Assembly (NCBI GenBank): GCA_016199125.1
Contig: JACQHH010000181.1
Span: forward strand, 1-41,404
Length of the DNA stretch: 41,404 bases
From: Candidatus Lambdaproteobacteria bacterium
GTDB taxonomy: Bacteria; SAR324; JACQKK01
Direction of reading: 5' to 3'
Under the pieces are notes generated by a model. The model saw only the letters and a list, made by a program, of their open reading frames with translations. It was not told the DNA's origin and made no database searches. Shown here piece by piece: positions 20,438-38,681 of this stretch. Made by a program: the position numbers and the translations under genes. How positions within the stretch are numbered: position 1 is the stretch's first letter; every line of letters begins with the position of its first letter.

Positions 20438-21460
20438 ATGAGCATTAACCATAGGTTGCTGCGCAGTGCCCGGGAGTTCTATCGGCGCCTTCCTGTTCCC
20501 TTGCGCTGGAAACAGCACTACTTGTTACCGACTATCTTTCGTTTGACGGGCGGATACTTCCGGGGCACCGGAGCCTATCAGAAATGGATCAGCGAGCGAA
20601 ATACCCCGCAATTCGATCACCTTGCCGATACGTATTATCGGCAGCTCATGTCCAACGGAAATCTTGCATTCAAGCTACAGGATCATACACCAAAAATATC
20701 GATTATCATCCTATCGTTTGGGCAGAGCAAATACACGTTGGCCTGCCTGCAATCGGTCAGTGTACATACCGCACCGGCACCGCCTTTTGAGGTCCTGGTA
20801 TTCGACAATGGCAGCAGCGCGGAGCATCTGGAGCGCATCGAAAAATATTCCTCGTCCCTGTGCCTGCTGCGCTCCGAAGAGAATCTTGGCTTCGCCAAGG
20901 GTTGCAATGCCGCGGCGGCACACGCACGGGGCGAATATCTTCTGTTCCTCAACAACGATACGCTCGTCACGCCGGGCTGGCTCACCGCCCTGCTGCACGT
21001 CATGCAGGCCCACGCCGATGCGGGCATTGTCGGTCCGAAGCTGATGTATGCCGATGGGACGTTGCAGGAGGCCGGGGCAAAGGTCCTGCAGGACGGCCAT
21101 GTGGAGCAGCGGGGCAAAGCCGACGATGCGCACCGGCCAATCTACAATCGCTGCGAAGCGGTACCGTATTGTACCGGCGCGGCGATACTCGTGCGCCGGG
21201 ACATCTTCCGGGCGGTTGACGGATTTGACGAATCGTATGCTCCCGCGTACTACGAGGACGCGGACTTGTGCTTCAAATTCCGCCAGGCCGGATATGAGAC
21301 GTACTATAGTCCCGATGCACTGGTGATTCACCGGGAAGGTGGCACGAGCCAGTCCATGTGGGGGGACAGCGGTGTCGCGGCGGTGGTGGAGCGGAATCGT
21401 CTGCGCTTTCTCGGCAAGTGGAAAGGCGAGCTCCAGCAGCACGCAAAGAAGTCGCGCTAG
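20438..21460 (+). CDS. Glycosyltransferase family 2
   Basis: ISIIILSF, VFDNGS, NLGFAKGCN, FLNNDT, GIVGPKL, YYEDADLC, HREG. The 5' part is AT-rich; start uncertain. Confidence 0.9.
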   Translation: MSINHRLLRSAREFYRRLPVPLRWKQHYLLPTIFRLTGGYFRGTGAYQKWISERNTPQFDHLADTYYRQLMSNGNLAFKLQDHTPKISIIILSFGQSKYTLACLQSVSVHTAPAPPFEVLVFDNGSSAEHLERIEKYSSSLCLLRSEENLGFAKGCNAAAAHARGEYLLFLNNDTLVTPGWLTALLHVMQAHADAGIVGPKLMYADGTLQEAGAKVLQDGHVEQRGKADDAHRPIYNRCEAVPYCTGAAILVRRDIFRAVDGFDESYAPAYYEDADLCFKFRQAGYETYYSPDALVIHREGGTSQSMWGDSGVAAVVERNRLRFLGKWKGELQQHAKKSR

Positions 21461-21609
21461 GCTTTGTCTGAAAAGGCAACCGCCGCCCTTGTATGTCTGT
21501 ACCAGCCCGTCTCGAAGGGCGCGAACCCGCATTGCTGGCGCCGTGGCCTTCGAGACAGCCGCCATTGGCGGCTTCCTCAGGCACACGGTATTTATTCCCA
21601 AACAGAGCT
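21460..21609. mobile_element. MITE-like element (TIR family A) carrying CTTCGAGAC-type REP arms
   Basis: TA|GGCTTTGTCTGAAAA ... TTCCCAAACAGAGCT|TA (10/15 inverted match). Begins on the GT2 stop codon. Internal GTCTCGAAGG / CCTTCGAGAC..CCTCAGG. Confidence 0.65.
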
Positions 21610-21845
21610 TAGCCGGCCTTGCGCCACATTCCCCTGCGGCACGTTCCCCCGCGGCCGGATTCGCCCCCCTCCCCTCCCCCCGAAAAGAGCACATCCTCCA
21701 GCCTGCCCGACGCCTTGCCCGCCGCCGCGGCCGCCTGGGGCGCCCGGCCGCCGTTCCCTTCCACGGCCCCTGACGGTTTCTGTTGAAGACGCCTTCCAAG
21801 CGCGATAGGAGTGTCCAACCGGCCATCCGCCGAGCGGGCCGCAAT

Positions 21846-21859
21846 TTGACCTAGGTCAA
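21846..21859. promoter_or_regulatory. Perfect palindromic operator TTGAC-CTAG-GTCAA upstream of the second Liv operon
   Basis: 14-bp perfect palindrome in the intergenic region, about 165 bp before livG. Confidence 0.55.
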
Positions 21860-22022
21860 GCGCGGGCCGCGCAATTCGGATAGGGATGGCTGGTGCGAAT
21901 CCGCGATGGGGCCGGCCGTACGACGACCCGCCGGTCGGGATTCGCGCGGGAAATGGCCGCAGCGGGCGGTACTCCGCCGTCTGCCGCGCGGCAAATCAGG
22001 AACCAGCACCGGGGCCTGCCCG

Positions 22023-22826
22023 ATGACTCTTGCCGCCACGACCACCGCCCCGGGCACCGCGCCGCCCGTGCTCGGCGCCGAGCACATGACCCTGCGCTTT
22101 GGCGGGGTCACGGCGCTGCACGACGTGAGCCTGGACGTGCGTGCGGACGAGACGCTGGCCGTGATCGGGCCCAACGGGGCCGGCAAGACCTCGCTGCTCA
22201 ACGTGTTCAGCGGATTCTACCATCCGCAGCAGGGGCGCTGCTTTTTCACGGGCACGGAGATCACCGGCAAGCCCACGCACGAGATTGCGCAGATGGGCGT
22301 CGCGCGCACTTTCCAGGGCACGCACATCTTCGCCGGCATGACCGTGCTGGACAACATCCTGGTCGGCCGGCACTTCCACATGCGCACCACCATTCCCCAG
22401 TCGTTCCTGTACTTCCCCTGGGCGCACCGCGAGGAGCTGCGCCACCGCGAGGTGGTGGAGGACATCATCGACCTGCTGGAGATCGAGTCCATCCGTTCGG
22501 CGCTGGTGGGCGCCCTGGGCTACGGGCTGCGCAAGCGGGTCGATCTGGCCCGGGCGCTGGCCATGGAGCCGCGCGTGCTGCTGATGGACGAGCCCATGGC
22601 CGGCATGAACACCGAGGAGAAGGAAGACCTGGCGCGCTTCATCCTGGACATCCGCGAGGCCCGGCACATCCCCGTGGTGCTGGTGGAGCACGACATGTCC
22701 GTGGTGATGGACCTCGCCGACCGCGTGGCCGTGTTCGACTTCGGACGCAAGATCGCCGAGGGCACGCCGCAGCAGATCCAACGGAATCCGGCCGTGATCA
22801 ACGCCTACCTGGGCGCCTCCGCCTGA
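22023..22826 (+). CDS. livG: Liv-type ABC ATP-binding protein (LivG family)
   Basis: FGGVTAL, GPNGAGKTS, ARTFQG, LGYGLRKRVDLARAL, LLMDEP, VEHDM. Confidence 0.92.
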   Translation: MTLAATTTAPGTAPPVLGAEHMTLRFGGVTALHDVSLDVRADETLAVIGPNGAGKTSLLNVFSGFYHPQQGRCFFTGTEITGKPTHEIAQMGVARTFQGTHIFAGMTVLDNILVGRHFHMRTTIPQSFLYFPWAHREELRHREVVEDIIDLLEIESIRSALVGALGYGLRKRVDLARALAMEPRVLLMDEPMAGMNTEEKEDLARFILDIREARHIPVVLVEHDMSVVMDLADRVAVFDFGRKIAEGTPQQIQRNPAVINAYLGASA

Positions 22827-22858
22827 GCCACGCACCGCACCACCGGGACGAACACCCT

Positions 22859-24856
22859 ATGCACCAGCCCCACACCCTTCCGCAGCTCCTGCTGGCCCGG
22901 GCCGGGCAGCAGCCCCAGAGCATCTGCCAGCGGCACAAGGACCGCGGCATCTGGCAGACCTATACCTTCGGCCAGGTGCAGGCCATCGTGCGCGAGCTGG
23001 CGCTGGGCTTCGCGGCCATGGGCCTGCGCCGGGGGGAATCGGTGATCCTGGTGGGCGAGAACGAGCCGGAGATTTTCTGGGGCGAATTCGCCGTGCTGGC
23101 CCTGGGCGCCAAGTGCATCGCGCTGTATCCCGACCTCACCGTCGACGAGCTGCACTACATGGGCGAGGACAGCGAGGCGGTGTTCATCGTCGCCCACGAC
23201 CAGGAGCAGGTGGACAAGGCCCTGGCCGCGCTGGAGCGCCTGCCGAAGATCCGCGCCGTGGTGTACTGGGACGAGAAGGGCCTGTGGTCCTACACCCATC
23301 CCCTGCTGCACACGTTTGCCCAGGTGCGTGCGCTGGGCCGCGAGCATGCCCAAGCGCATCCCGGGCTGTTCGAGCGCGAGGTGGCCGCGGGCCGGGACGA
23401 TGAGATCGCCATCCTCACCTATACCTCCGGCACCACCGGGCGCCCCAAGGGCGTGGTGACCACCCACCGCAATCTGTTCGACAGCGCCTACCGCTTCCTG
23501 GACGCGGTGCCGGTGCGCCCGCACGCCGAGTACCTGTCCTACATTCCCCTGGCCTGGGCCACGGAGCAGTACTACGGCATCGCCATCGGCCTGCTGGCCC
23601 CGCTGGTGGTCAACTTCCCGGAAAAGCCCGAGGAAGTGCTGAACAACATCCGCGAGCTGGCGGTGGAGGTGCTGGTCTTCGGCCCGCGGCAGTGGGAAAG
23701 CCTGGCCGCCACGGTGCAGGCACGCATGCTGGATGCCGGGCGCCTGCGCCAGGCGCTCTATCGCTTTGGCGTGCGCATCGGCCATGCCGTCCACGTGGCA
23801 CGCCTGGAGGGCCGCCGCCCCGGCTGGCTGGCGCGCCTGCTGTTTCCCCTGGCCGATGCCCTGGTGCTGCATCCCCTGCGCGACAAGCTGGGGCTGGTGC
23901 GGGCCAAGGTGGTGGTCTCCGGCGGCTCGGCCATGGCCCCGGACGTGTTCCGCCTGTTCCACGCCATGGGCGTCCCCCTGCGCAACATCTACGGGGCCAG
24001 CGAGATCGGCCTGCTCACCGCCCACCGGGGCACGCAGTACAACCTGGAAACGGTGGGCCATTGGATGACGGTGCGCCCGGAATTCGGCGCGGCGCTGGAG
24101 TGGAAGATCGGCCCCGACGGGGGGCTGCTGGTGCGCGGCGGCTCGGGCTTCAACGGCTACTACAACAAGGCCGAAAAATCCGCGGAGAAGATCAAGGACG
24201 GCTGGTTCGATACTGGCGATGCCGTGTCCGTCACGGAGTCCAACGAGCTGGTGTTCCTGGAGCGCGTGGACGACATGCGCACCCTGGCCAGCAACGAGAA
24301 GTACCCGCCGCAATTCATCGAGACCCGGCTGCGCTTCAGCCCCTTCATCAAGGACGTGATGACCGTCGGCGACCGGCGCCACCCCTTTGTCACGGCCCTG
24401 GTGAACATCGATCCGGAGGTCGTGGGCCGCTGGGCCGAGGAGCGGCGCATCGGCTTTTCCACCTACCAGGACCTCTCCCAGAACGCCGAGGTGCGCGCCA
24501 TGATCCAGCGCGAAATCGCGCGCATCAACGACCTGCTGCCCCCCCACGCGCGCGTGGTGCGCTTCGCCAACTTCCCCAAGGAGCTGGACCCCGACGAGGG
24601 CGAACTCACGCGAACGCGCAAGCTGCGCCGCGAGTTCCTGGAAGCGCGTTACCGGCCGCTCATCGACGGCCTCTACGGCGGGGAGCGGCACGTGGACGCC
24701 GTGATTCCCGTCACCTACCAGGACGGCCGCAAGGGCGAGCTGCGCGCCCGGGTGATCATCAACGACCTGGCTCCGGCTCCGGTGGAAGCCGGCGCGCCGG
24801 GTGCCGGCGGCGCCGCGCGGGCGGCGCGTCTGCAGGTGCAGGAGGTGGCGCCGTGA
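22859..24856 (+). CDS. Long-chain acyl-CoA synthetase (AMP-forming)
   Basis: Intact YTSGTTGRPKG, YGASE, WFDTGD and C-terminal GELTRTRKLRR. Confidence 0.92.
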   Translation: MHQPHTLPQLLLARAGQQPQSICQRHKDRGIWQTYTFGQVQAIVRELALGFAAMGLRRGESVILVGENEPEIFWGEFAVLALGAKCIALYPDLTVDELHYMGEDSEAVFIVAHDQEQVDKALAALERLPKIRAVVYWDEKGLWSYTHPLLHTFAQVRALGREHAQAHPGLFEREVAAGRDDEIAILTYTSGTTGRPKGVVTTHRNLFDSAYRFLDAVPVRPHAEYLSYIPLAWATEQYYGIAIGLLAPLVVNFPEKPEEVLNNIRELAVEVLVFGPRQWESLAATVQARMLDAGRLRQALYRFGVRIGHAVHVARLEGRRPGWLARLLFPLADALVLHPLRDKLGLVRAKVVVSGGSAMAPDVFRLFHAMGVPLRNIYGASEIGLLTAHRGTQYNLETVGHWMTVRPEFGAALEWKIGPDGGLLVRGGSGFNGYYNKAEKSAEKIKDGWFDTGDAVSVTESNELVFLERVDDMRTLASNEKYPPQFIETRLRFSPFIKDVMTVGDRRHPFVTALVNIDPEVVGRWAEERRIGFSTYQDLSQNAEVRAMIQREIARINDLLPPHARVVRFANFPKELDPDEGELTRTRKLRREFLEARYRPLIDGLYGGERHVDAVIPVTYQDGRKGELRARVIINDLAPAPVEAGAPGAGGAARAARLQVQEVAP

Positions 24857-25737
24857 CCGACTTTCTCATCTATCTCATCGAGGGGGCGCTGATCGGCCAG
24901 GTCTATGCGCTGATCGCCATGGGCTTCGTGGTCATCTACCGCGCCAGCAAGGTGTTCAACTTCGCCCAGGGCGAGCTGGTGGTGCTGGGCGGCTACCTGG
25001 TGTGGTGGATGGTGCTGGGCAGCGGGCTGCCGGCCTGGGTGGGCATTCCCCTGGCCTTCGCCCTGGCCGCGCTGACCGGCATCGTCATCGAGCGCATCTT
25101 CTTCTCCAGGCTGGTGGGCGAATCGCTGTTCTCCATGGTCATGGTCACGGTGGGGCTGCTGGTGCTGCTGCGGGGCGTGTTCCTGGTGATCTGGGGGGCG
25201 CACGTGCGCCCATTCCCCATGATCGTGCCCATGCGCCCGCTGATCCTGGGCGAGCTGTTCATCAGCCGCTCCCTGCTCATCGGCGGGGCGGTCACCGTGG
25301 TGGCGGCGGTGGGGCTGTCGTGGTTCTTCAACCGCACCACCGCCGGGCTGCGCATGACGGCCGTGGCGGAGGACCACCAGATCGCCATGTCCCTGGGCAT
25401 CTCGGTGAAGCGCTCGGTGGCCTTCGCCTGGATGCTGGGCGCCGTGCTCTCCACGGTGGGGGCCATCGTGTTCCTCAACGGCAAGTCGCTGAGCTTCCTG
25501 GCTTCGGACATCGGGTTCGCGGCGCTGCCCGTGGCCATGCTGGCCGGGCTGGAATCCATCGGCGGGCTGATCCTGGCCGGGCTGGTGGTGGGCATTGCCC
25601 AGGGCATGGCGGCGGCCTACCTGGATCCGCTGCTGGGCGGTGGCGTGAGCACGGTGCTGCCCTTCGTCGTAATGATCCTCATCCTCTTCTTCCGTCCGAA
25701 CGGGCTGTTCGGCTGGAAGCTGATCGAACGGGTGTAA
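24853..25737 (+). CDS. livH: Liv-type ABC permease (LivH family)
   Basis: GTG start overlapping the upstream TGA; GGAGG RBS. YALIAMGFVVIYRASKVFNFAQGE, RPNGLFG. Confidence 0.92.
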   Translation: MTDFLIYLIEGALIGQVYALIAMGFVVIYRASKVFNFAQGELVVLGGYLVWWMVLGSGLPAWVGIPLAFALAALTGIVIERIFFSRLVGESLFSMVMVTVGLLVLLRGVFLVIWGAHVRPFPMIVPMRPLILGELFISRSLLIGGAVTVVAAVGLSWFFNRTTAGLRMTAVAEDHQIAMSLGISVKRSVAFAWMLGAVLSTVGAIVFLNGKSLSFLASDIGFAALPVAMLAGLESIGGLILAGLVVGIAQGMAAAYLDPLLGGGVSTVLPFVVMILILFFRPNGLFGWKLIERV

Positions 25738-25740
25738 GCC

Positions 25741-26799
25741 ATGGCCATGCTGCCTTCGGGCGTCTTTGCGGTCCGCTATGCGCAGGACCGCGCGCTGCTG
25801 CGCACCCGGCCGCAATGGGTCTCGCTGGCGCTGTTCATGCTGCTGCTCGCGCTGCTGCCGCACCTGGTCACGCCGCGGCTGCTGGCCATCGCCAACCTGA
25901 TGCTGGTCACGGCCATCGTCGTGGTGGGGTTGCAGATCACGCTGGGCTACGCGGGCCAGGTGAACCTGGGCCAGTCGGCGTTCATGGGCGTGGGCGCCTA
26001 TGCCGCGGGCGTGCTTTCCACCAAGTGGTCCCTGCCGTTCCTGGTGACGATCCCGCTGGGCGGCGTCGCGGCAGCCCTGTTCGGCTTCGTGTTCGGTCTC
26101 TCCGCGGTGCGCATCAAGGGCTTCTACCTGGCGCTGACCACGATCGCCGCGCAATTCATCTTCCATTTCGCCGTGCTCAACCTGCCCGTCTCGTGGCTGG
26201 GCGGCTCCAACGGGATTTCCATGCACCCGGCCCGCCTGGGCGGCATCGAGTTCAGCACGGACGTGAGCATCTACTACCTGTTCCTGGTGTCCTGCACGCT
26301 CATGGTGGCCGGGGCCTTCGGCATGATGCGCAGCCGCACGGGCCGGGCGTTCATCGCCGTGCGGGACGACGACGTGGCTGCCGGCATGACGGGCATTCCG
26401 GTCGTGCGCACCAAGGCCATGGCCTTCCTGGTGGGGGCCTTCTATGCGGGCATCGGCGGCGGGCTGTATGCGTATTACATCCGCTTCATCTCGGTGGACC
26501 AGTTCAATCTGTTCAATTCCGTGTGGTACCTGGGCATGATCATCGTGGGCGGCACCGGCTCCATCGTGGGCGCCCTGCTGGGCACCTTTCTCATCCGCGC
26601 CTTCCAGGAGGTGGTCACGTCCATCGGCCCCCTGCTGGCCGAGCTGGTGCCGTGGCTGGGCGGAGACATCGTGTTTGCCAGCATGAACATCCTGCTGGGC
26701 GGATTGATCGCGTTCTTTGTGATTGTCGAACCGGACGGCCTCATGCACCGCTGGAACATCCTCAAGGCCAGCTACCGCCTGTGGCCCTTCCGCTATTAG
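25741..26799 (+). CDS. livM: Liv-type ABC permease (LivM family)
   Basis: GYAGQVNLGQSAFMGVGAY, RIKGFYLALTT, GRAFIAVRD, EPDGL. Confidence 0.92.
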   Translation: MAMLPSGVFAVRYAQDRALLRTRPQWVSLALFMLLLALLPHLVTPRLLAIANLMLVTAIVVVGLQITLGYAGQVNLGQSAFMGVGAYAAGVLSTKWSLPFLVTIPLGGVAAALFGFVFGLSAVRIKGFYLALTTIAAQFIFHFAVLNLPVSWLGGSNGISMHPARLGGIEFSTDVSIYYLFLVSCTLMVAGAFGMMRSRTGRAFIAVRDDDVAAGMTGIPVVRTKAMAFLVGAFYAGIGGGLYAYYIRFISVDQFNLFNSVWYLGMIIVGGTGSIVGALLGTFLIRAFQEVVTSIGPLLAELVPWLGGDIVFASMNILLGGLIAFFVIVEPDGLMHRWNILKASYRLWPFRY

Positions 26800-29116: not shown

Positions 29117-30310
29117 ATGAGACCCGTCGTGATAGCCGGCGCGGGCATGACCCCGTTCGGAAAATTCCTGGAACGCAACGTGCGCGACCTGGCCGAGCAG
29201 GCCACCCGCGCGGCCCTGGACGATGCCCACCTGACCCCCGCGGAGGTGGGCATGGTGGCCTTCGGCAACTCCAGTTCCGGGCTCATCACCGGGCAGGAGA
29301 ACATCCGCGGCCAGGCGGCCCTGCGCAACACGGGCCTGCTGGGTTGCCCCGTGGTCAACGTGGAAAATGCCTGCGCCTCCGGCTCCAGCGCCTTTCACCT
29401 GGCTTGGCTCTACGTGGCCTCGGGGATGTGCGACGTGGCGCTGGCCGTGGGGGCGGAAAAGCTGGCCCACCGGGACAAGGCCGTGCCCTTCGCGGCCATG
29501 GAGGCGGCCCTGGACCTGGAGGAGCGCGAGCAGCTCAAGGCGTCGCTGCACCAGAGCGCCGGCGCCGGCGCCACGCAGTCCATCTTCATGGACGTCTACG
29601 CCAACCTGACCCGGCAATACATGCGGCAATCCGGGGCCACGGCCGAGAACTTCGCCGACGTGGCCGTCAAGAGCCACTTCGCCGGCGCGCGCAATCCGCG
29701 CGCGCAGTTCCGCGAGGAGGTGAGCCGCGAGGCCGTGCTGGCCAGCCGCATGATCTCCGAGCCGCTGACCCTGATGATGTGCTCGCCCATCGGCGACGGA
29801 GCGGCGGCCCTGGTGCTGTGCAGCGAGGAGGCGGCCCGCCGCGGGGGCGCCGACGCCGTGAGCGTGCGCGCCTCGGTGCTGGTTTCCGGCAGCGCCCGCG
29901 GCGAGCTGGAGCCCCCGCCCACGCGCGCCTCGCGCCAGGCCTACGCGCTGGCCGGCATCGGCCCTGAGGACGTGGACGTGGTGGAGCTGCACGACGCGGC
30001 CGCGCCCGCAGAGCTGATGCTCTACGAGGAGCTGGGCCTGGCCGGCCGGGGCGAAGGGCCGGCGCTGCTGGCCTCGGGCAGGACCCGCGTCGGCGGCAAG
30101 ATGCCGGTCAATCCCAGCGGCGGTCTGCTGAGCAAGGGGCATCCGGTGGGTGCCACGGGCTGCGCGCAGCTCTTCGAGCTCACCGAGCAGTTGCGCGGGC
30201 GGGCCGGAGCGCGCCAGCGCGAGGGGGCCCGGGTGGCCCTGGCCGAAAACGGCGGGGGCTTCCTCAACCCCGACCCGGCGGCCTGCACCATCACCATTCT
30301 CGCCCGCTAG
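29117..30310 (+). CDS. Thiolase family protein (SCP2/SCP-x type)
   Basis: VENACASGS (catalytic Cys), CSPIGDGAAA, VELHDA, NPSGGLLSKGHPVGATG, ENGGG. GGAGG RBS. Confidence 0.92.
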   Translation: MRPVVIAGAGMTPFGKFLERNVRDLAEQATRAALDDAHLTPAEVGMVAFGNSSSGLITGQENIRGQAALRNTGLLGCPVVNVENACASGSSAFHLAWLYVASGMCDVALAVGAEKLAHRDKAVPFAAMEAALDLEEREQLKASLHQSAGAGATQSIFMDVYANLTRQYMRQSGATAENFADVAVKSHFAGARNPRAQFREEVSREAVLASRMISEPLTLMMCSPIGDGAAALVLCSEEAARRGGADAVSVRASVLVSGSARGELEPPPTRASRQAYALAGIGPEDVDVVELHDAAAPAELMLYEELGLAGRGEGPALLASGRTRVGGKMPVNPSGGLLSKGHPVGATGCAQLFELTEQLRGRAGARQREGARVALAENGGGFLNPDPAACTITILAR

Positions 30311-30469
30311 GCTTTGTTCGAGAATAGTTGCCATACCCTTCGAGACGCCGCGCATGGCGCGGCTCCTCAGGGATGCGGCTTTGAAATCACGAGTGAAACT
30401 GAATACCGCGTGGCTGAGGAGTGCCCGCAGGGCGCGTCTCGAAGCCCGCTTTTTTTCTCAAACAGAGCC
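30310..30469. mobile_element. MITE-like element (TIR family A), best-preserved copy, CTTCGAGAC-type REP cargo
   Basis: CTA|GGCTTTGTTCGAGAA ... TTCTCAAACAGAGCC|TAG (13/15 inverted match, TA on both sides). The 116-bp core 30334-30449 differs from 38543-38658 at 5 positions. Confidence 0.8.
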
Positions 30470-30507
30470 TAGGCCCGCGGGCCACGCGGCGACAGCAGGA
30501 GCAACCC

Positions 30508-31834: not shown

Positions 31835-32623
31835 ATGGATAATCTTTTGGATCTGAAAGGCCGCATCGGGCTGGTCACCGGCGCCGGCCAGGGCGTGGGG
31901 CGCCAGATCGCCCTGCACTTCGCCGCGCACCGCGCGGGCGGCGTGGTGGTCAACGACTTCTACCGCGAGCGCGCCGAAGCCGTGGTGCGCGAGGTGCAGG
32001 CCGCCGGCGTCAAGGCGCTGGCGGTGGTGGGCGACATTTCCGATTACCAGGCCGTGCAGCAGATGGCGCGGCAGGCCGAGCAGACCTTCGGGCGCGTGGA
32101 CATCCTGGTCAACAACGCGGGCAATGCCGGCCCGGTCACCGACATTTCCAGCATCCCGCCCTTCCTGGAAAGCGACCCGGCATCCTGGCAGACCTGGTTC
32201 GGCACGAACCTCTTCGGCGTGCTCAACCTGTCGCGGGCGCTGGTGGGGGGCATGGTGCAGCGGGGCTACGGGCGGGTGATCACCGTCATTTCCGATGCCG
32301 GGCGCGTGGGCGAGCCGCACCTGGCGGTGTACTCGGCCGCCAAGGCGGGTGCCGCCGGGTTCATGCGGGCCCTGGCCAAGGGCGTGGGCCGCGCCAACGT
32401 CACGGTCAACTGCGTGGCGCCCGGCACCATCCAGACCCCCGCCACGGCCGGCCTGCTGGAGGATCAGGAAACCCTGAGGAAGATCCTGCGCCTGTACATG
32501 ATCCGCCGCCTGGGCGAGCCCAGCGACATCGCCAACATGGTGCTGTTCCTGGCCTCCGACGCGGCCGGCTGGGTCACCGGACAGACGTTTCCCGTCAACG
32601 GCGGCTATTCGGTGTCGGTCTAG
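31835..32623 (+). CDS. Short-chain dehydrogenase/reductase (hydroxyacyl-CoA dehydrogenase-like, BadH/FabG-related)
   Basis: TGAGQGVG, VVND (acidic residue suggests NAD), NNAG, ISDAGR, YSAAK. GGAGG RBS. Confidence 0.92.
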   Translation: MDNLLDLKGRIGLVTGAGQGVGRQIALHFAAHRAGGVVVNDFYRERAEAVVREVQAAGVKALAVVGDISDYQAVQQMARQAEQTFGRVDILVNNAGNAGPVTDISSIPPFLESDPASWQTWFGTNLFGVLNLSRALVGGMVQRGYGRVITVISDAGRVGEPHLAVYSAAKAGAAGFMRALAKGVGRANVTVNCVAPGTIQTPATAGLLEDQETLRKILRLYMIRRLGEPSDIANMVLFLASDAAGWVTGQTFPVNGGYSVSV

Positions 32624-32634
32624 GCCGCGGGCCT

Positions 32635-33822
32635 CTACTTCTGACCTGCCGCCGCCGCGCGCGGCGCCTCGCCGAAGGCGGACAGGCCCCCCAGCAGATT
32701 GCGCGCGATGACCAGCTTCTGGATCTGGCTCGTGCCGTCCGGGATGGTCATCATGCGCGCGTCGCGGAACAGGCCCTCCAGCGGATATTCCTGGCTCAGC
32801 CCGTAGGCCCCGTGAATCTGGATGGCGCGCGAGGTGATGCGCACGGCGGCCTCGGTGGCGTAGTACTTGGCCATGGAGGTCTGCGTGTCGCAGCGCGCGC
32901 CCTTGTCCACCAGCGACATGGCGCGGTAGGTCAGCAGGCGCGCGCAGTCCAGCTCGGTGGCCATGTCGGCGATCATGTCCTGGATGAGCTGGTGCTGCCC
33001 GATGCGCTTGCCCCACTGCTCCCGCTCCTGGGCATAGGCCAGGGAATGATCCAGCGCCGACTGCGCGATGCCCACCGAGGTGATGGCCACGAAGCAGCGC
33101 GCCCACTCGAACAGTTGCAGCGTGCGCTTGAGCCCCGTGCCCCATGCGCCCACCTGGGCCGAGGCCGGCACGCGGGCGTTGTCGAAGAACACCTCGGCCG
33201 TGGACCAGGCGTTGAGCCCCAGCTTGTGCAGCTCCCGCGTGGTGTAGCCGTGCGGCTCGCGGTCCACCACGAAGCGGTTCAGCCCCTTGGCCGCATCCTC
33301 GTGCCGCACCACGACGATGCACGCGTCCGAGATGCCGCCATTGGAGATCCAGTTCTTCTGCCCGTTGATCACGTAGCCGTCGCCCGCCGGCGTGGCCTTG
33401 GTGCTGACGTTGCGCACGTTGGAGCCCACGTTGGGCTCGGTGATCGCCGAGCAGCCGATCAGGTCGCCCGACATCAGCCCGGGCAGGTAGCGCGCGCGTT
33501 GCTCCGGCGTGCCGTCGTGATACAGCGTGAGCAGGAAGCCCTCGTTGATGAACGCCGTGCCCGCCAGCCCCGGAAACACGCGGAACAACTGCTCGTACAG
33601 CAGCCCCGAGGTCAGCACGGGCAGGCCCATGCCCCCGTCCCGTTCCGGAATGCTGCCTACGATGTAGCCGAAGGGGACGATCTTGCGCAGCAGCTCGTGC
33701 ATCACGGGCTTGGGCACGACGGTGTCGCGGTATTGTTCGGCATAGGGACGAATGTCCTGCTCCAGGAAGCGCCGGGCCGCATCGACGGCCAAGCGCTGCT
33801 CTTCGCTCAAGTCGAAATCCAC
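32635..33822 (-). CDS. Acyl-CoA dehydrogenase family protein
   Basis: DFDLSEEQ, AITEPNVGSN, INGQKNWISNG, KLG, REQWGKRIG, AIQIHGAYG, RDAR..TIPDGT. GTG start with GGAG RBS. Confidence 0.92.
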   Translation of the reverse strand: MDFDLSEEQRLAVDAARRFLEQDIRPYAEQYRDTVVPKPVMHELLRKIVPFGYIVGSIPERDGGMGLPVLTSGLLYEQLFRVFPGLAGTAFINEGFLLTLYHDGTPEQRARYLPGLMSGDLIGCSAITEPNVGSNVRNVSTKATPAGDGYVINGQKNWISNGGISDACIVVVRHEDAAKGLNRFVVDREPHGYTTRELHKLGLNAWSTAEVFFDNARVPASAQVGAWGTGLKRTLQLFEWARCFVAITSVGIAQSALDHSLAYAQEREQWGKRIGQHQLIQDMIADMATELDCARLLTYRAMSLVDKGARCDTQTSMAKYYATEAAVRITSRAIQIHGAYGLSQEYPLEGLFRDARMMTIPDGTSQIQKLVIARNLLGGLSAFGEAPRAAAAGQK

Positions 33823-33952
33823 GGTCTTTCTCCACGCTGAGATGGAAGGTTCGGGTGCCTGGTGCGGCGGATGCCCCACGCGGGGGGCGTGCGCGGTCCG
33901 GGCCTGAAGCCCAGGCATTGTACGAGGGTGCGCCAGGCGCGGATGTGCCTTA

Positions 33953-33993
33953 TGTCACTATTCCGGTGTCACTGTTCCAGTGTCACGTTCCGG
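33953..33993. repeat. Three tandem ~14-bp direct repeats
   Basis: TGTCACTATTCCGG / TGTCACTGTTCCAG / TGTCAC-GTTCCGG. Confidence 0.7.
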
Positions 33994-34064
33994 CCCGCGC
34001 CGTTCCGGTCAGCGCCGGGCATCCCGGCAGGGCCGTGGTCGCCGCGACCCACTTGCGCCCGGAG

Positions 34065-34106
34065 ATGATGTTTGTCATAGGAGAGCCGGCCACGAATCGC
34101 TAGTCT
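34065..34106 (+). promoter_or_regulatory. Crp/Fnr-type box plus -10 element for the DUF2249 gene
   Basis: ATGAT-GTTT-GTCAT (34065-34078), 22-bp gap, TAGTCT (34101-34106). Confidence 0.6.
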
Positions 34107-34252
34107 GAGCGAACCCAGGCGCAACCCGGACGTGGCGCGGCGCCGTTGCGCCGCCCCGCCGCTTGCGCCGAGCTGGGCCCCGGCGCCGGCCCGCCGCATG
34201 GCGCGGACCCCCGGCGCCCGCCACTTCCGCCGTCCCCACCCGTGGGCCGCCC

Positions 34253-34525
34253 ATGATCGCGTTCGAGCAGATCGATCCCTTCGTGAAGTTCTGGCAGGAA
34301 GACCGCACCTATCACCTGGACGTGCGCGAGCTGCTGGACAACGGCGGCGAGCCCTACGAGGTGATCATGTCCTGCGTGCTGCAGATCGACGCGGACGATC
34401 GGCTGGTGCTGCACGCCCCCTTCGAGCCCAAACCCCTCATCCGCCAGTTGCGCGGCATGGGCCTGCAGGCCCACAGCGCGCGGGTGGACGTGGATCATTG
34501 GACATTGGCCGTCAGTCGCGACTAG
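34253..34525 (+). CDS. DUF2249-domain (TusA/SirA-like fold) protein
   Basis: 'LDVRELLDNGGEPYEVIM...L.LHAPFEPKPL...L..MG......W' matches the DUF2249 pattern. Confidence 0.8.
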   Translation: MIAFEQIDPFVKFWQEDRTYHLDVRELLDNGGEPYEVIMSCVLQIDADDRLVLHAPFEPKPLIRQLRGMGLQAHSARVDVDHWTLAVSRD

Positions 34526-34695
34526 GCATTGTGTTGGAATGGCGGATCGCGTGAATCCGGCCGCGTTTGTCATTCCGAGGCCCGCAGTTTGGGCCGAGGA
34601 ATCTCATTGCTATAGCACGATGAGATTCCTCGCTGTGCTCGGAATGACAACAGGCGGGTAATTTTGAAGTTGCCATCGCATTGCCGAACAGAACC
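34525..34695. mobile_element. MITE-like element (TIR family A) carrying a GTCATTCCG-type REP hairpin
   Basis: CTA|GGCATTGTGTTGGAA ... TTGCCGAACAGAACC|TAG. Both flanking CTAGs are stop codons of convergent genes. Internal perfect 13-bp inverted repeat TTGTCATTCCGAG/CTCGGAATGACAA (34567-34650). Confidence 0.65.
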
Positions 34696-35084
34696 TAGTC
34701 CCGCGTCCAAAGCAGGGCGCGCAGCCTGGGGTGGCGCAGCGCCAGCCCGACCCACAACAGCGCCGCCACGTAGCACGGAAACAGCGTGTGGCTGAACAGC
34801 GGGCTGCCGATGCGCACGTGCGTGGCCACCGCACCCCCGAGATAGCCCGTCAGCCAGATCGAGCCGTAGAGCGCCGTCCACGGGATGACATAGAGCACCA
34901 GGCCCGCCAGCAGGAGTGCGCCGATGACCGGCACCGCGCCGGGCGGATAGCCGAGCTGGACGGTCCACTGGACGACGGCTTCCATGCGCAGCGCATGGGT
35001 CACTCCGTCGAAGAGGAGAAAAGCCACCGCGAGGCCGCTGAGCACGCGGCCGCTCCAGAGCTGTTTTCGTGTCACCTGATTCAT
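34695..35084 (-). CDS. DoxX-family membrane protein
   Basis: Four TM segments, 'LGYP', 'LYVIP.T...G...LTGYLGGAVATHVR'. GGAGG RBS before ATG 35084. Confidence 0.85.
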   Translation of the reverse strand: MNQVTRKQLWSGRVLSGLAVAFLLFDGVTHALRMEAVVQWTVQLGYPPGAVPVIGALLLAGLVLYVIPWTALYGSIWLTGYLGGAVATHVRIGSPLFSHTLFPCYVAALLWVGLALRHPRLRALLWTRD

Positions 35085-35230
35085 TGGCGTCGACCTCCCG
35101 TCCAGTCGGTTGGGCTGCGTGATGCGCTTGAACATCCCGTGGGTGCCGCGGGCGTCGCCCGGGATGCCGCAGGTCCATCCCCTTGCCGCCCGATGCGGCA
35201 AGGCCCGCGAATCCGCGCGCCACGGCGGGA

Positions 35231-35998
35231 TCAGGGTGAAGAGTCCTGGGACATCAGCTCCCGCAGCGCGTCCAGGTCGGGAATGAGAAATCCCTCCGGC
35301 GCCGAGTGCACCACGTTGTCCTTGTTCCAGCGGCTCATGATGCGGATCACGGTTTCCACCCGGGCGCCCACCATGCCGGCCACTTCGTTGCGGCTCAGGT
35401 GCACCGGCACCAGCACCCCGCCGTCCTGCTCCCGCCCCATCTCCCGCGCGTAGGTGAGCAGCAACTGGGCGATGCGCGACTGCACGCCGGCCTCCCCCAG
35501 CACCTCCAGCCGATGCCGCAGCGAGCGCACGCGCAGGTTGAGGTCGCGGATGATGGAGCGCGAAACCTCGGGAAAGCGCTCCAGCAGCTCCAGGTACTCC
35601 TTGCGCGCCAGCAGCATCACGCCGGCGTCCGTGCGGGCCACGGCATTGGCCGGGAAATCGTCGCCATTGATCAGCGCCACTTCGCCGAACGCTTCGCCGG
35701 GGCGGATGATGTCCATGATCATCTCACGCCCGGATTCCAGCGCCTTGAACACGGTCACCTCGCCCCTGAGCACGAAATAGAAATGCGTGCACGGATCGCC
35801 CTCGAAGAAGATCGCCTCGCCCTTGCGGTATTCGCGCAGGCTGCTCTGCTGGTGCAGCAGGGCGCGTGCCTTCTCGGAAATCCCTGAAAAGCGGGCGATT
35901 TTCTGGATGATGGCGGGGTCGATCAAGAGCGATCCTGATGCGGGGGCGGTCCCGGGCGCGGCGGGCGCTGGCGCAGGCGCCGTCCTACCCGCTACCAT
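35231..35998 (-). CDS. Crp/Fnr family transcriptional regulator (no FNR Cys cluster; DNR/NnrR/HcpR-like)
   Basis: cNMP-binding domain (IFFEGD, GEV, GEAFGEVA) and HTH 'SRNEVAGMVGARVETVIR'. Only one Cys. The true start may lie downstream of 35998. Confidence 0.9.
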   Translation of the reverse strand: MVAGRTAPAPAPAAPGTAPASGSLLIDPAIIQKIARFSGISEKARALLHQQSSLREYRKGEAIFFEGDPCTHFYFVLRGEVTVFKALESGREMIMDIIRPGEAFGEVALINGDDFPANAVARTDAGVMLLARKEYLELLERFPEVSRSIIRDLNLRVRSLRHRLEVLGEAGVQSRIAQLLLTYAREMGREQDGGVLVPVHLSRNEVAGMVGARVETVIRIMSRWNKDNVVHSAPEGFLIPDLDALRELMSQDSSP

Positions 35999-36040
35999 AT
36001 GACCGATGTCATAGTCGCGGCAACATGGCTATGGCAGAAT
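35999..36040 (+). promoter_or_regulatory. Crp/Fnr-type box plus extended -10 for the cytochrome b/Fe-S gene
   Basis: ATGAC-CGAT-GTCAT (35999-36012), 22-bp gap, TGG-CAGAAT (hexamer 36035-36040). Confidence 0.65.
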
Positions 36041-36112
36041 AGAATACCGATCAGAATTCAAATCCGCTGCCCCTGCCCGGGAGCCGCCTTCGCTTGAGCA
36101 CGGAGTTTCGTC

Positions 36113-37714
36113 TTGCAGACGCCCCACACCTATTTCCCCACACGCCCGCCGGCCGCACGGCTGGTGGAGCGGATTTTCAATCCGCTGGACACGCTGTGCA
36201 ACCGTCTCTACGGCTCGCGCTACAATCCGCTCTACCAGAGCGGCACCATCGCCGTGCTGAGCCTGCTGGTGCTGCTGGTGACGGGGCTCTACCTGCTGTG
36301 GTTCTACAAGATCGGAGCCCCCTACGAGTCCGTGACCAACATCGAAGCGCAGTGGTGGGGCGGCCGTTTGATCCGCGCGGTGCACGTGTATGCCGGTGAC
36401 GTCATGATGGTCGCCGTGGCGGTGCACGCGCTGCGCATGGCCCTGCGCGGGCGCACCTGGGGACCGCGGGTGCTGGCCTGGATCAGCGGCGTGGTGCTGG
36501 TGTCCATCGTCATGATGAGCAGCATCACGGGCATGGTGCTGGTGTGGGATGTGCAGGGCCAGTTGCTGGCCATCGAGGGCGCGCGCATGGCGGACACGCT
36601 GCCCATCTTCTCCGAGCCCATCCAGCGCACGTTCATCAGCAGCCAGGGGGTGCCGGCCTCGTTCTTCTTCCTCAACCTGATCCTGCACATGGTGTTTCCC
36701 TTCGCCATCCTGATCGGGCTGTGGGTGCACACGCTGCGCGTGTCGCGGCCGGCGCTGCTGCCGCCGCGCAAGCTGTCGGCGTGGCTGCTGGTGGCCCTGT
36801 TGGGGGTGTCGCTGGCCTATCCGGCGGGCATGCTGCCGCCTGCGGACTACCTGACCATCCTGGGCCGGGTGCCCGTGGACTGGATCAACACGTTCTGGCT
36901 GCTCGTCTCGCGCAACGTGCCGCCGCCGGTGACGCTGCTCAGCGGGCTGGCGCTGTTCCTGTTCCTGGTGAGCGTGCCCTGGTGGTGGAAGCCGCGCCTG
37001 GCGGCGCACCCGGAGCCCGCGCGGGCCAACCCCAACCTGTGTACGGGCTGCACCCAGTGCTACAAGGACTGCCCCTACGGGGCCATCAGCATGGTGCCGG
37101 CGCCGCCCAGCAACCATGCCACGGACATCGTGGCGCTGATCAATCCGGCGCTGTGCGTGAGCTGCGGCATCTGCGCCGGGTCCTGCGGCCCCATGGTCGT
37201 GGGTCCGCCGGGGCGCGTGGGGCGCGACCACCTGCTGGCGGCCCAGCGCCTGATGACCGCCGCGGCCCCCGGCGCCGAGGACATCGTGCTCATGGCCTGC
37301 GAGCAGGGGCTGGGGCTGGAGCCGGTGCTGGCCGGGCTGCCGCACGTGACCGTGCACCGCCTGCACTGCGCCGCCGCCGTGCACACCTCGGCCATGGAAT
37401 ACCTGCTGCGGCGCGGCTGCGGCGGGGTGTACGTGCTGGCCTGTCCGGAGCGCGACTGCGCCTATCGCGAAGGCCCCAGGTGGCTCCGTGAGCGGCTCTA
37501 CGAGGACCGCGAGGCCGAGCTGCAGCCGCGCGTGGACAAGCGCCGCGTGAAGATGGGCGGTTTCGGCCCGGCCGACCTGCCCCAGGCCCTGGCCGACATC
37601 GGCGCGTTCCAGGCGGACATCGCCGCCCTGGCCCACGAGGCCCGTGACGAAGGGGACGTGCAGCTCGAACCCGATTGCGAGCCCATGCCGCTGGCGGAGG
37701 TGGCCCATGGTTAG
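36113..37714 (+). CDS. Fusion protein: di-heme cytochrome b/b6 domain + 2x[4Fe-4S] ferredoxin + MvhD/FlpD-like [2Fe-2S] domain
   Basis: Heme His pairs RAVHVY..AVHALR and ILHMV..WVHTLR; 'LVTGLYL..FY..GAPYESV'; CTGCTQCYKDCP; CVSCGICAGSCG; MAC..LHCAAAV..ACPERDCAYREG. TTG start with GGAG RBS. Confidence 0.88.
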   Translation: MQTPHTYFPTRPPAARLVERIFNPLDTLCNRLYGSRYNPLYQSGTIAVLSLLVLLVTGLYLLWFYKIGAPYESVTNIEAQWWGGRLIRAVHVYAGDVMMVAVAVHALRMALRGRTWGPRVLAWISGVVLVSIVMMSSITGMVLVWDVQGQLLAIEGARMADTLPIFSEPIQRTFISSQGVPASFFFLNLILHMVFPFAILIGLWVHTLRVSRPALLPPRKLSAWLLVALLGVSLAYPAGMLPPADYLTILGRVPVDWINTFWLLVSRNVPPPVTLLSGLALFLFLVSVPWWWKPRLAAHPEPARANPNLCTGCTQCYKDCPYGAISMVPAPPSNHATDIVALINPALCVSCGICAGSCGPMVVGPPGRVGRDHLLAAQRLMTAAAPGAEDIVLMACEQGLGLEPVLAGLPHVTVHRLHCAAAVHTSAMEYLLRRGCGGVYVLACPERDCAYREGPRWLRERLYEDREAELQPRVDKRRVKMGGFGPADLPQALADIGAFQADIAALAHEARDEGDVQLEPDCEPMPLAEVAHG

Positions 37715-38339
37715 GCGCGCGGGACTGTGGGTGCTGCGCTTCGCGGTGCCCGTGCTGGCGCTGCTGGCGCTGGTCTGGGTGGCGCGGCTGCCCATGGGCA
37801 GCGATCCGCGGGATGGCCTGCTGCGCCTGGCCTGGCGCACCGTGGGCGCGCGCATCAAGGTGTGCCGCGACTACACGCCCGCAGAGCTGCAACGCGTTCC
37901 CGCGCACATGCGCGCCCAGCGCATCTGCGCGCAATCGCTGCTGCCCTATCGCGTGCGCGCCAGCGTGGACGGCGTGCCCGTGGTGGATCAGCTCGTGCAA
38001 CCGGCCGGCGTGCGCGGCGACAGGCCGCTGTTCGTGCATCGCGACCTGACCCTGGCGCCGGGCACCCATCGGCTGGCGTTGCACTGGGACCCGGAGCCGG
38101 CCGAGGGCATCGAGGACGCCGCCTTGCGCGACGCCACCCGCGACGCCACCGCCGACGCGTCCCGCTACGCCCTGGAGCGCGAGGTGCGCATCGCCGCGGG
38201 GCGCATCGTCATGATCGAGCTGGACGAAGCGGCGCGCGGATTCCGCGTGATCGGCGAGGGCCAGACCGCCTCCCGCGGCAACCAGGCTCTGTCCGGGAAA
38301 GACGAATCGTCGATTCTTCGGGCCCTGGTGTCATTCTGA
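37707..38339 (+). CDS. Hypothetical N-terminally anchored exported protein, translationally coupled to the cytochrome b/Fe-S fusion
   Basis: GGAGG RBS and 8-bp overlap with the upstream gene. One TM, then 'LRLAWR...C...PAHMR..C..', beta-rich 'LAPGTHRL'. The last 18 codons lie inside a MITE. Confidence 0.75.
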   Translation: MVRRAGLWVLRFAVPVLALLALVWVARLPMGSDPRDGLLRLAWRTVGARIKVCRDYTPAELQRVPAHMRAQRICAQSLLPYRVRASVDGVPVVDQLVQPAGVRGDRPLFVHRDLTLAPGTHRLALHWDPEPAEGIEDAALRDATRDATADASRYALEREVRIAAGRIVMIELDEAARGFRVIGEGQTASRGNQALSGKDESSILRALVSF

Positions 38340-38457
38340 GGCCCGCCCCGCGGGCCGAAGCATCTGTCGATCGCAGGCACATTGGATTCCCCGCTGTGCC
38401 CGGAATGACATCCCTTCGCCGGCGTTCGGAACTTCCCCCGCATTCCCAGACACAGCC
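38285..38457. mobile_element. MITE-like element (TIR family A) carrying a GTCATTC-type REP hairpin, overlapping a CDS end
   Basis: GGCTCTGTCCGGGAA ... TTCCCAGACACAGCC (13/15 inverted match). Internal TGTCATTCTGAGGCCCGC..GGGCCGA..CGGAATGACA (38329-38410) resembles 34567-34650. Confidence 0.7.
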
Positions 38458-38518
38458 GGGCCCCCCAGGGGGAGCCGGGCAGCCTTGCCCGGCGTGGGCT
38501 GCATCCTGACCCCCCCAA

Positions 38519-38681
38519 GGTTCTATCCGGGAATGGTTGCCGTACCCTTCGAGACGCCGCGCCTGGCGCGGCTCCTCGGGGATACGGCTTTGAAATCACG
38601 AGTGAAACTGAACACCGCGTGGCTGAGGAGAGCCCGCAGGGCGCGTCTCGAAGCCCGCATTTCACATTCTCGGACAGAGCT
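38519..38681. mobile_element. MITE-like element (TIR family A), near-identical sister of 30310-30469
   Basis: GGTTCTATCCGGGAA ... TTCTCGGACAGAGCT|TA (11/15). The right end coincides with the TAA stop of the Sco gene. 111/116 core identity with the 30334 copy. Confidence 0.8.

Follow-up and report, generated by a model that had tools for sequence, protein, structure and literature searches.

The window, by which we mean the whole 41,404-nt stretch of DNA that was analysed, carries five short elements that we read, with a probability of roughly 0.8, as MITEs derived from an IS5-family insertion sequence, with REP doublets as their cores, inserted at CTAG and lying on stop codons because CTAG is largely found there. 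The first-pass annotation had proposed a composite non-autonomous element that combines DDE-type ends with varying REP doublets and sets hairpins at gene 3' ends; the present analysis supports that proposal. MITEs of this kind are already known and the elements are ordinary as such; their chimeric build is the only part that goes beyond the routine.

Elements, ends and gene contacts

All five elements with terminal inverted repeats (TIRs) of about 15 bp, as claimed by the first-pass annotation, were recovered, and their ends align:

21460..21609, no strand assigned: E1, 150-bp MITE of subtype A', TA on both flanks; TIRs GGCTTTGTCTGAAAA and AGCTCTGTTTGGGAA (reverse complement)
21506-21519 and 21547-21581: core of E1, half REP1(-) and REP1(+)
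30310..30469, no strand assigned: E2, 160-bp MITE of subtype A, TA on both flanks, CTAG target reconstructed
30336-30372 and 30412-30446: core of E2, REP1(+) and REP1(-)
34525..34695, no strand assigned: E3, 171-bp MITE of subtype B, TA on both flanks
34568-34649: cargo of E3, REP2 doublet
38283..38339, plus strand: stretch by which gene 37644..38339 is probably extended at its C-terminus into E4, with CAG in the expected place of TAG, then 17 codons and TGA
38285..38457, no strand assigned: E4, 173-bp MITE, flanked by CA (left) and GG (right) rather than TA
38329-38410: cargo of E4, REP2b
38519..38681, no strand assigned: E5, 163-bp MITE of subtype A, flanked by AA (left) and TA (right)
38545-38581 and 38621-38655: core of E5, REP1(+) and REP1(-)

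The left ends and the reverse-complemented right ends aligned as GGCTYTGTYYGRGAA-like 15-mers with the consensus GGCTCTGTYYGRGAA (about 15 bp). TA adjoined seven of the ten ends, which agrees with the earlier count, the exceptions being both ends of E4 and the left end of E5. The elements are 150-175 bp long and non-coding, and the ORFs inside them were either spurious or due to read-through only.

Contacts with stop codons were established from the ORF list and the Pfam identification of the flanking genes, and these confirmed that four elements lie on stops and that the fifth starts on an in-frame CAG. The first base of E1 is the last base of the stop TAG (21458-21460) of a GT2 gene, the first base of E2 completes the TAG (30308-30310) of a thiolase gene, and the last base of E5 (the T of AGCT) completes the minus-strand TAA (38681-38683) of a SCO1/SenC gene. 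E3 is located between the convergent genes for DUF2249 (stop TAG 34523-34525) and DoxX_2 (minus-strand stop TAG 34695-34697), and in the CTAG reconstructed there the two stops would have overlapped by TA. At E4, the ORF 37644..38339 continues through the in-frame CAG (38283-38285) for 18 codons into the element. Orthologues of this gene in four relatives could be aligned only up to residues 198-209 of 231, and the orthologue in the family genome G016 has a TGA stop 8 residues ahead of the CAG. A later mutation of the stop T could have caused the gene to read on into the element. The E4 region (38255-38514) was spanned by one 297-nt contig of the sequencing run X4.

In the 2.98-Mb assembly to which the window belongs, G000 (73.5% complete, 68% GC), BLAST and end searches found 11 TIR-bounded copies, dispersed beside unrelated genes, and a single unpaired TIR at C136:19472, which lies on a stop codon. 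E1 showed 88-92% identity over 102-103 nt to the C97, C30 and C194 copies by BLAST, and derives from the E6-E8 type by deletion; E2 was 90% identical to E5 and 89% to the C174 copy, to which E5 was 92% identical. The genome-wide search for TIR pairs that had been suggested in the first-pass annotation showed the pairs to be enriched and piled up at 140-180 bp, where nine inverted pairs with at most 4 mismatches to the consensus were found, versus 1-6 per 20-bp bin elsewhere. The combined CTAG+TIR pattern had nine matches in G000 versus none for the reversed control, and was present in 10 of 19 genomes of the same family (9 of 18 when G000 is left aside), with 0-1 control matches per genome. 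Five of the 11 copies are clustered within 17 kb. No TIR match was found at the contig ends of G000, where 1.9 were expected, so hidden copies at contig breaks are not the reason for this local cluster. A "pair" of PWM matches 797 bp apart on C9 was discarded as a chance match in a coding island of 43% GC.

Parent transposon and REP cores

In two relatives, a two-ORF IS5-family transposase (NF033580, the IS427-group build) lies some 100 bp downstream of the TIR of the elements. At locus L058 the TIR, at position 1387, is followed by orfA and orfB, with the Pfam domains DUF4096 and DDE_Tnp_1; at L025/L091, TA and GGCTCTGTTCGGAAA are followed by a DUF4096 orfA. The NF033580 scores were 122 bits for orfA of L058 (cut-off 110), 93.5 bits for its orfB and 96 bits for the L091 fragment. 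The nearest named elements are ISPst8 and ISPs1, both 910 bp long. ISPst8 begins with GGTTCTGTACGAAAAGT after CTA and ends with ACTTTTCGTACAGAACC before TAG, and ISPs1 begins with GGTTTTGTACG after CTA and ends with AACC before TAA. The GGTTCTGTTCGGAAA ends of E8 and E11 are identical to these ends at 13 of 15 bases.

The elements thus share with the IS427 group (ISPst8 and ISPs1, and IS1248 and ISPpa2 of Paracoccus) a TIR of about 15 bp that starts with GG. The TA flanks are in keeping with the 2-bp duplication of that group, and its two-ORF transposase with DUF4096 and a DDE domain is matched by the copies in relatives that carry the element TIR. The window elements differ in being without a transposase, in having a length of 150-175 bp rather than about 830-910 bp, and in an interior made of REP doublets instead of IS sequence. 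According to the part of the Paracoccus survey available to us, elements of this group are 832-865 bp long with inverted repeats of 13-21 bp, have direct repeats of 2 bp in 11 of the 12 listed and 4 bp in one, and mostly contain two overlapping ORFs with a frameshift (PMC3281130). The inverted-repeat length and the TA flanks of the window elements fit this group, and the length of about 910 bp was seen only in ISPst8 and ISPs1. OrfA of L058 was only 52-57% identical to the plasmid-borne copies listed, including those of the ISPst8 and ISPs1 families. Searching the DUF4096 and DUF772 loci of the 19 family genomes yielded only truncated copies with the element TIR and no full IS bounded by it on both sides: the L058 copy is cut by another repeat and the L091 copy is truncated. 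A pattern scan of the genome contigs gave five loci, three of them the already known IS left end and two that look like chance. In G000 itself, at its 73.5% completeness, no DUF4096, DDE_3 or full DDE_Tnp_1 transposase of matching type was found; the transposase with the same ends that the first-pass annotation had hoped for thus adjoins the TIR in relatives and not in G000. As the cognate transposase was not seen in G000, the copies there probably date from long ago and can no longer move.

Two classes of inverted REP doublet make up the cores. The two types of palindromic cargo reported earlier, one in three elements and the other in two, were found as described: E1, E2 and E5 have CCTTCGAGAC..CTCCTCAGG (REP1), and E3 and E4 have TGTCATTC[CT]GAG..CGGAATGACA (REP2). 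The REP2 units have the form TGTC+ATTCC..GGAAT and are arranged as inverted dimers. Folding was strong, with z values of -5.4 (E2), -6.5 (E3) and -3.3 (E1), and compensatory stem changes were present at 12 of the 45 predicted pairs. Both classes also occur apart from the elements, since 24 of the 35 exact CCTTCGAGAC matches and 41 of the 49 GTCATTCCGAG matches (at most one mismatch) lay outside the 11 copies. The same classes turned up in four or more distinct inverted-repeat frames, of which two have proven IS5-family ends, and at L091 an IS copy has its orfA split by a REP1 doublet. Across genera the TIR and REP blocks are conserved, and the linkers between them diverge. The cargo had been called interchangeable; what we observed is a few old TIR-plus-cargo lineages, kept vertically across genera, and a recurrence of these REP classes in further frames; free swapping was not observed.

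Two other sources of mobility were considered for these elements. The first-pass annotation had left the DDE-type parent as either IS5 or IS630, and of these the IS5 part, in an IS427-group-like form, is retained. IS630 elements also insert at the TA of CTAG, so that derivation from the IS630/Tc1-mariner group would agree with the TA flanks and the reconstructed CTAG targets. We nevertheless consider it very improbable and rejected it, because no DDE_3 (PF13358) match exists in G000 and because the TIR adjoins IS5-family (NF033580, DUF4096) genes in two relatives and, among the ends compared, those of ISPst8 and ISPs1 match at 13 of 15 bases. It also appears improbable, if somewhat less so, that the units are REPIN- or BIME-like mosaics moved by a tyrosine (RAYT-type) or other REP-specific system, with the TIRs merely as outer motifs. 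The inverted doublets with their compensatory changes and the occurrence of the same REP classes without the element TIR speak for such mosaics, and REP dimers in palindromic frames are described for other bacteria in the accessible part of one report (PMC3733652). Yet the outer motif is a real IS5-family end flanked by TA, and no RAYT gene or Y1_Tnp (PF01797) match was found in the 73.5% complete G000. Nor did Y1_Tnp track the REP1 doublet in the family: the doublet was present in 11 of 19 genomes and Y1_Tnp in five of 19, with the doublet without Y1_Tnp in G004, G016, G017 and G001 and the reverse in G007 and G013. A RAYT linkage was rejected on these grounds.

As to known REPs, the cores resemble REPINs in consisting of two inverted REP-like palindromes, and REP2 resembles the CGTC-tagged REPs of Alphaproteobacteria, starting with TGTC and having a stem that begins with AT. 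In the sections of the source at hand, CGTC-type REPs pair head to head and lack a transposase of their own, and in a few species REP dimers lie inside palindromic frames (PMC3733652). The stems and loops of REP2 exceed the lengths given there, 8-9 bp for stems and 4-5 nt for loops, and REP1 fits neither tag class. Unlike in REPINs and CGTC dimers, the frame in the window is a demonstrable IS5-family TIR with TA flanks, and no RAYT was found.

Target site and stop codons

Ends abutting TA numbered 14 of 22 in G000 and 21 of 26 in relatives (35 of 48 overall), and TA was present at both ends in five of 11 and eight of 13 elements, respectively. C lay outside the TA at 13 of the 14 TA ends of G000, and a CTAG target could be reconstructed for all five G000 elements with TA at both ends. 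At eight of the 22 G000 ends TA is missing; E7 is flanked by TG left and right. E5 and E9, located at different loci, have the same variant first base A, which indicates that this base belongs to the element and that a duplication would be of TA and not of CTAG. From the flanks and the published relatives we infer a 2-bp target-site duplication.

CTAG is rare in G000, being 14-fold under-represented (644 observed versus 8795 expected), and 267 of these sites (41%) lie on called stops, with 214 intergenic and 163 coding; among all TA sites, 942 of 33133 lie on stops. Gene calls for these counts came from a crude GC3-based caller covering 80% of the genome. Eight of the 11 elements in G000, and eight of the 13 in relatives, abut a real stop. 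For G000 this share has P=0.20 under a null of non-coding CTAG sites and P=2e-6 under a null of non-coding TA sites. The elements are therefore on stop codons because their rare target lies largely there, and the stop-codon targeting named in the first-pass annotation is not a separate mechanism. Its second suggestion, that stops are among the few TA sites tolerated in high-GC DNA, is borne out once CTAG specificity and selection are taken together. Our literature search, which covered its sources in part, found no published account of CTAG-targeting IS or MITEs accumulating at the stop codons of GC-rich genomes.

On the preferred IS5-derived reading, a DDE transposase acting in trans would bind the TIRs and insert the element at the TA of CTAG (more rarely CTAA or TTAG), duplicating the TA. 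Insertions inside genes would be purged by selection, leaving the surviving copies on or beside stop codons. As the first base of the element is G (A in one lineage), TA+G or TA+A would restore TAG or TAA after insertion and leave the gene intact. REP-like palindromes of the host lineage probably entered the IS or MITE frame by nested insertion and would have been carried along since. MITEPsy1 of Pseudomonas syringae is likewise a short non-coding element with IS5-type TIRs which, in the portion of its description available, inserts at CTAG or YTAA, is mobilised in trans and has given rise to a new allele by insertion at a gene 3' end (PMC3189936). The same portion sets it apart from the window elements by its length of 100 nt, a 4-nt duplication, an origin from ISPsy2 of a different group and an interior without a REP core; its mobility is experimental, whereas that of the window elements is deduced from sequence (PMC3189936).

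Comparison of orthologous loci gave partial support to insertion. In G016 the orthologous gene pair is convergent with a 7-bp gap and carries neither E4 nor E5, and for three copies in the family genome G003 similarity to G016 or G006 begins or breaks off precisely at the stop codon, with no element there. No precise empty site, with both flanks alignable and a single CTAG, was found in these comparisons, which were cross-genus, cross-species or one-sided, or had differing stops; the family genomes compared included none from the genus of G000. Contigs of four sequencing runs on 21000-39700 had no element boundary among the 15 joints listed (208 further joints exist), the 24-nt left flank of E1 had no match in a metagenome scan, and thiolase relatives in metagenomes were at most 65% identical and had no TIR pairs. 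Of the observations by which the first-pass annotation wished to be judged, enriched TIR pairs and TA flanks were thus obtained, and empty sites were obtained only in one-sided or cross-genus form.

The position of the elements could in principle reflect homing to gene ends or a function there. True homing to stop codons or to the 3' ends of genes, for instance through recognition of a termination-linked structure, would mean a preference beyond CTAG specificity. The shares on real stops in G000 and in relatives are indeed somewhat above the 55% of the null, other IS427-type ends in relatives also adjoin apparent stops, and the local cluster points the same way. The excess over the CTAG null is, however, not significant, E7 and E11 are intergenic, and the crude caller overlooks at least about a tenth of the genes, which puts the true share of stops under the null higher; we regard homing as improbable. 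Least probable of all is that the elements are not mobile DNA but regulatory modules which selection conserves at 3' ends, as terminators or mRNA stabilisers. Their 3'-end position and strong folding, and a run of seven T residues 3' of the second E2 hairpin, are what such modules would show. Against this, the elements adjoin genes unrelated to one another, relatives lack them at the orthologous loci, no Rfam match was found, terminator-like sites were not enriched (six found versus 7.5 in shuffles), and the TIR is common to insertion sequences. A secondary effect of the elements on the host may nevertheless be conceived.

Meaning for annotation and for REP mobility

For annotation, IS5-type MITEs explain many of the palindromes that supply stop codons in high-GC genomes, and also some C-terminal extensions by read-through, as at E4, and contig breaks. 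On a tentative and rather doubtful reading, IS5-family TIR frames serve in this lineage as a vehicle spreading REP dimers without a transposase of their own, including those of the CGTC type. The conservation of TIR and REP blocks with diverged linkers would then suggest that the hairpin core is needed for propagation or retention of the chimera and is not passive filler. IS5-family ends around REP doublets, with the same classes in several frames, give a hint of how REPs without a RAYT might move.

Ends, junctions and copies of the elements

The five elements delimited by the first-pass annotation were recovered at the same coordinates, with an alignment of the ten ends giving the shared terminal inverted repeat (TIR) of about 15 bp, near GGCTCTGTYYGRGAA, and with TA adjoining seven of the ten ends. 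Junctions were taken from ORF coordinates and neighbouring gene identities from Pfam, which bore out the claimed stop-codon contacts of four elements and the in-frame CAG at the edge of the other. The division into two palindrome types, carried by three and two elements, also held:

E1, 21460-21609: starts on the G of the TAG of the GT2 gene; REP1 palindromes
E2, 30310-30469: starts on the G of the thiolase TAG; REP1
E3, 34525-34695: starts on the DUF2249 TAG and ends on the DoxX_2 TAG, minus strand; REP2 palindromes
E4, 38285-38457: starts on an in-frame CAG within ORF 37644..38339; REP2
E5, 38519-38681: ends on the SCO1/SenC TAA, minus strand; REP1

The REP1 palindromes have the form CCTTCGAGAC..CTCCTCAGG and the REP2 palindromes the form TGTCATTC[CT]GAG..GGAATGACA.

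A BLAST search with the five elements, together with a check of the ends, gave 11 TIR-bounded copies in the source assembly, G000 (2.98 Mb, 238 contigs, 68% GC, 73.5% completeness; the window is contig C155). Three subfamilies were distinguished: A (E2, E5 and the C174 copy, 89-92% mutual identity), A' (E1 and one copy each on C97, C30 and C194) and B (E3, E4 and one copy each on C186 and C102). The inverted pairing of the TIRs held genome-wide, pairs accumulating at 140-180 bp spacing by fuzzy consensus matching, and a solo TIR lies on a stop codon at C136:19472. The pattern CTAGGYTCTGTYYGRGAA, with at most one mismatch, had nine matches in G000 versus none for the reversed control and was present in 10 of 19 same-family genomes (7 of 15 genera).

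Five of the 11 copies lie in one 17-kb part of the window, 21460-38681 (Poisson P about 8e-9). The CTAG count of the window is ordinary (14 vs 8.9 expected; 5 of the 14 at element ends), and TIR matches were not found at G000 contig ends. This cluster could stem from local hopping or from assembly bias. A 43%-GC island within the 68%-GC genome, C9:16440-17340, with two ORFs of 209 and 93 aa, is probably foreign DNA, and the TIR-matrix matches in it were dismissed as chance matches.

Parent transposon family

No match to DDE_3, DUF4096, DUF772 or Y1_Tnp was found in the 73.5% complete G000, and the only IS5-family transposase trace is a C-terminal relic on C54. A transposase next to this TIR was found only in relatives, where the TIR forms the left end of IS copies. 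At locus L058 the order is TA/GGCTGTGTCTGAAAA (slashes mark element edges), about 100 bp, then orfA and orfB, and at loci L025/L091 it is TA/GGCTCTGTTCGGAAA, then orfA. The ORFs at these loci match the NCBIfam model NF033580 (IS5 family, 258-aa type), L058 orfA with 122 bits at a cut-off of 110, and relatives' IS ORFs carry the Pfam domains DUF4096 and DDE_Tnp_1. Among the closest named relatives by tblastn against plasmids were ISPst8- and ISPs1-family transposases (54-57% identity), which we take to belong to the IS427 group. The ends of ISPst8 (910 bp), CTA/GGTTCTGTACGAAAAGT...ACTTTTCGTACAGAACC/TAG, and of ISPs1, CTA/GGTTTTGTACGAAAAGT...AACC/TAA, are identical at 13 of 15 positions to the GGTTCTGTTCGGAAA ends of the C194 and C102 copies. 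Paracoccus IS427-group elements, as described in sections of PMC3281130, measure 832-865 bp with inverted repeats of 13-21 bp, duplicate 2 bp in 11 of 12 listed cases and 4 bp in one, and mostly have two ORFs that overlap and a frameshift motif. Taken with the TIR-bearing IS copies and the ISPst8/ISPs1 ends, these traits identify the window elements, at the level of sequence, as IS5-family (IS427-group-like) MITEs.

At L058 2246-2303 (G006:C73) the IS copy is interrupted at TA by another repeat beginning GGAGTTGTCCCGATC, which occurs at three further G006 sites with 95-98% identity. IS427-type copies with different TIRs at L055 (G003:C97), L059 (G016:C52) and L053 (G002:C85) also start directly 3' of TA, and two of them come immediately after what appears to be the stop of the ORF upstream (..TTCGATTAG/ and ..AACTTCTAA/).

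Target site and orthologous loci

TA adjoined 14 of the 22 G000 ends and, for 13 elements of relatives, 21 of 26. C stood outside TA at 13 of the 14 TA ends in G000, and a CTAG target was reconstructed for all five G000 elements with TA on both sides. Since E5 and the C174 copy share the variant first base A at different loci, this base is the element's own and the duplication would be TA, not CTAG.

A genuine stop codon adjoins 8 of the 11 G000 elements, the others being E4 with its CAG and the intergenic C30 and C102 copies; the same heuristic, with a few false calls on second flanks, gave 8 of 13 in relatives. The annotation had explained this siting by survival at stop codons, as being among the few TA sites where insertion is tolerated. 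With genes from a crude GC3-based caller (2191 genes covering 80% of the genome), stop codons account for only 942 of the 33133 TA dinucleotides. CTAG itself occurs 644 times in G000 (8795 expected from base composition), with its TA in a called stop codon at 267 sites (41%), 214 sites being intergenic and 163 coding. If insertion requires CTAG and only non-coding insertions survive, the expected share on stops is 55% and the observed number fits (P(8 or more of 11) = 0.20), whereas a TA-only null does not (P = 2e-6). The stop-codon position therefore follows from CTAG specificity and selection: survival at tolerated sites stands, but the available target is CTAG and not any TA. Because the TIR begins with G (or A), insertion would restore a stop on either strand as TA+G or TA+A, and within the CTAG reconstructed for E3 the stops of the two convergent genes would have overlapped.

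In comparisons with genomes of other genera, elements were absent from some orthologous sites, but the single-CTAG empty site expected by the annotation was not found in precise form among the relatives compared, the second flank being unalignable or the stop different in every case. The G016 orthologues of gene 37644..38339 and SCO1 are convergent genes 7 bp apart that end in TGA, with neither E4 nor E5 present. For three G003 copies (L022, L031, L045), homology with G016 or G006, which lack the element, begins or stops exactly at the stop codon; G016 carries CTAG or TTAG at two of the three sites. Among the joints listed for contigs of four public runs, none fell at an element edge; E4 is covered from end to end by a 297-nt contig of a different study. 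Two metagenome scans yielded no usable empty site. Since alignments of the gene 37644..38339 orthologues from four relatives end at residues 198-209 of 231, the CAG at the E4 edge looks like a mutated TAG with an 18-codon read-through.

In G016 and G014 (L108/L119, L103/L121) about 140-150 bp separate the DUF2249 gene from the Crp-family gene, and neither DoxX_2 nor E3 is present, so that DoxX_2 (34695-35201) is, from this gene order, lineage-specific here. E3 sits exactly at the DoxX_2/DUF2249 junction.

REP cargo and its other frames

Every element core consists of two REP-like palindromes in inverted orientation. The elements folded far better than shuffles (z -5.4 for E2, -6.5 for E3, -3.3 for E1). 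Across nine subtype-A-like elements from five genera the TIRs and REP flanks were conserved in alignment and the linkers divergent, while the REP stems were variable but compensated (12 of 45 predicted pairs). The cargo of 24 TIR-bounded elements, 11 from G000 and 13 from relatives with one duplicate locus omitted, formed four clusters: a REP1-type with 14 elements in 5 genomes, a REP2-type with 6 in 3 genomes, another type with 3, all in G003, and a singleton. Further types were seen by eye in relatives' one-ended copies.

Both REP classes also occur elsewhere: 24 of 35 exact CCTTCGAGAC matches (reversed control 8) and 41 of 49 GTCATTCCGAG matches with at most one mismatch (control 3) lie outside the 11 elements. 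Flanking inverted repeats reached by at most 2 of 100 shuffles were present at 4 of 11 other REP-doublet loci, and three further frames were grouped by eye:

GGTCTCAARAA (end of the C54 IS5-family relic): C215, C228
GCAGGGCAAYCGCA: C119, C200, C60
ATTTCGCATTCAAG: C79, C94, C64

The relic, C54:12685-12910 (L090 1474-1710, minus strand), has a second TIR type, CTA/GAGCTGGTCTCAAGAATG, which is also the frame around the C215 and C228 REP2 doublets; the relic is inserted at CTAG, 3 bp past the TAG that ends the adjacent gene. C94:1110-1280, C79:425-600 and C64:1550-1660 form a small repeat family of REP1 doublets framed by ATTTCGYATTCAARATGATGC ... TTGAATGCAAATTGGTACGA, each beginning 1-8 bp past a TGA stop.

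At L091 a REP1 doublet, which has short flanks of its own, interrupts the IS orfA. Given this and the occurrence of the REP classes in other frames, the best-supported origin of the chimeras would be a nested one, in which REP units inserted into IS/MITE frames. Y1_Tnp is present in 5 of 19 family genomes, a distribution that does not follow the REP1 doublet. The REP2 units, with a TGTC tag, an AT-starting stem and an arrangement as inverted dimers, are similar to the CGTC-tagged alphaproteobacterial REPs, which PMC3733652 reports to be without a dedicated transposase and, in a few species, to lie inside palindromic frames.

The element family itself appears unnamed, and no published statement of the CTAG/stop-codon argument was found in the portions of the literature searched. 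IS5-derived MITEs with CTAG/YTAA targets are already known as a kind, MITEPsy1 being one as outlined in PMC3189936. The only feature of wider interest is the chimeric build, an IS5 frame carrying a REP doublet.
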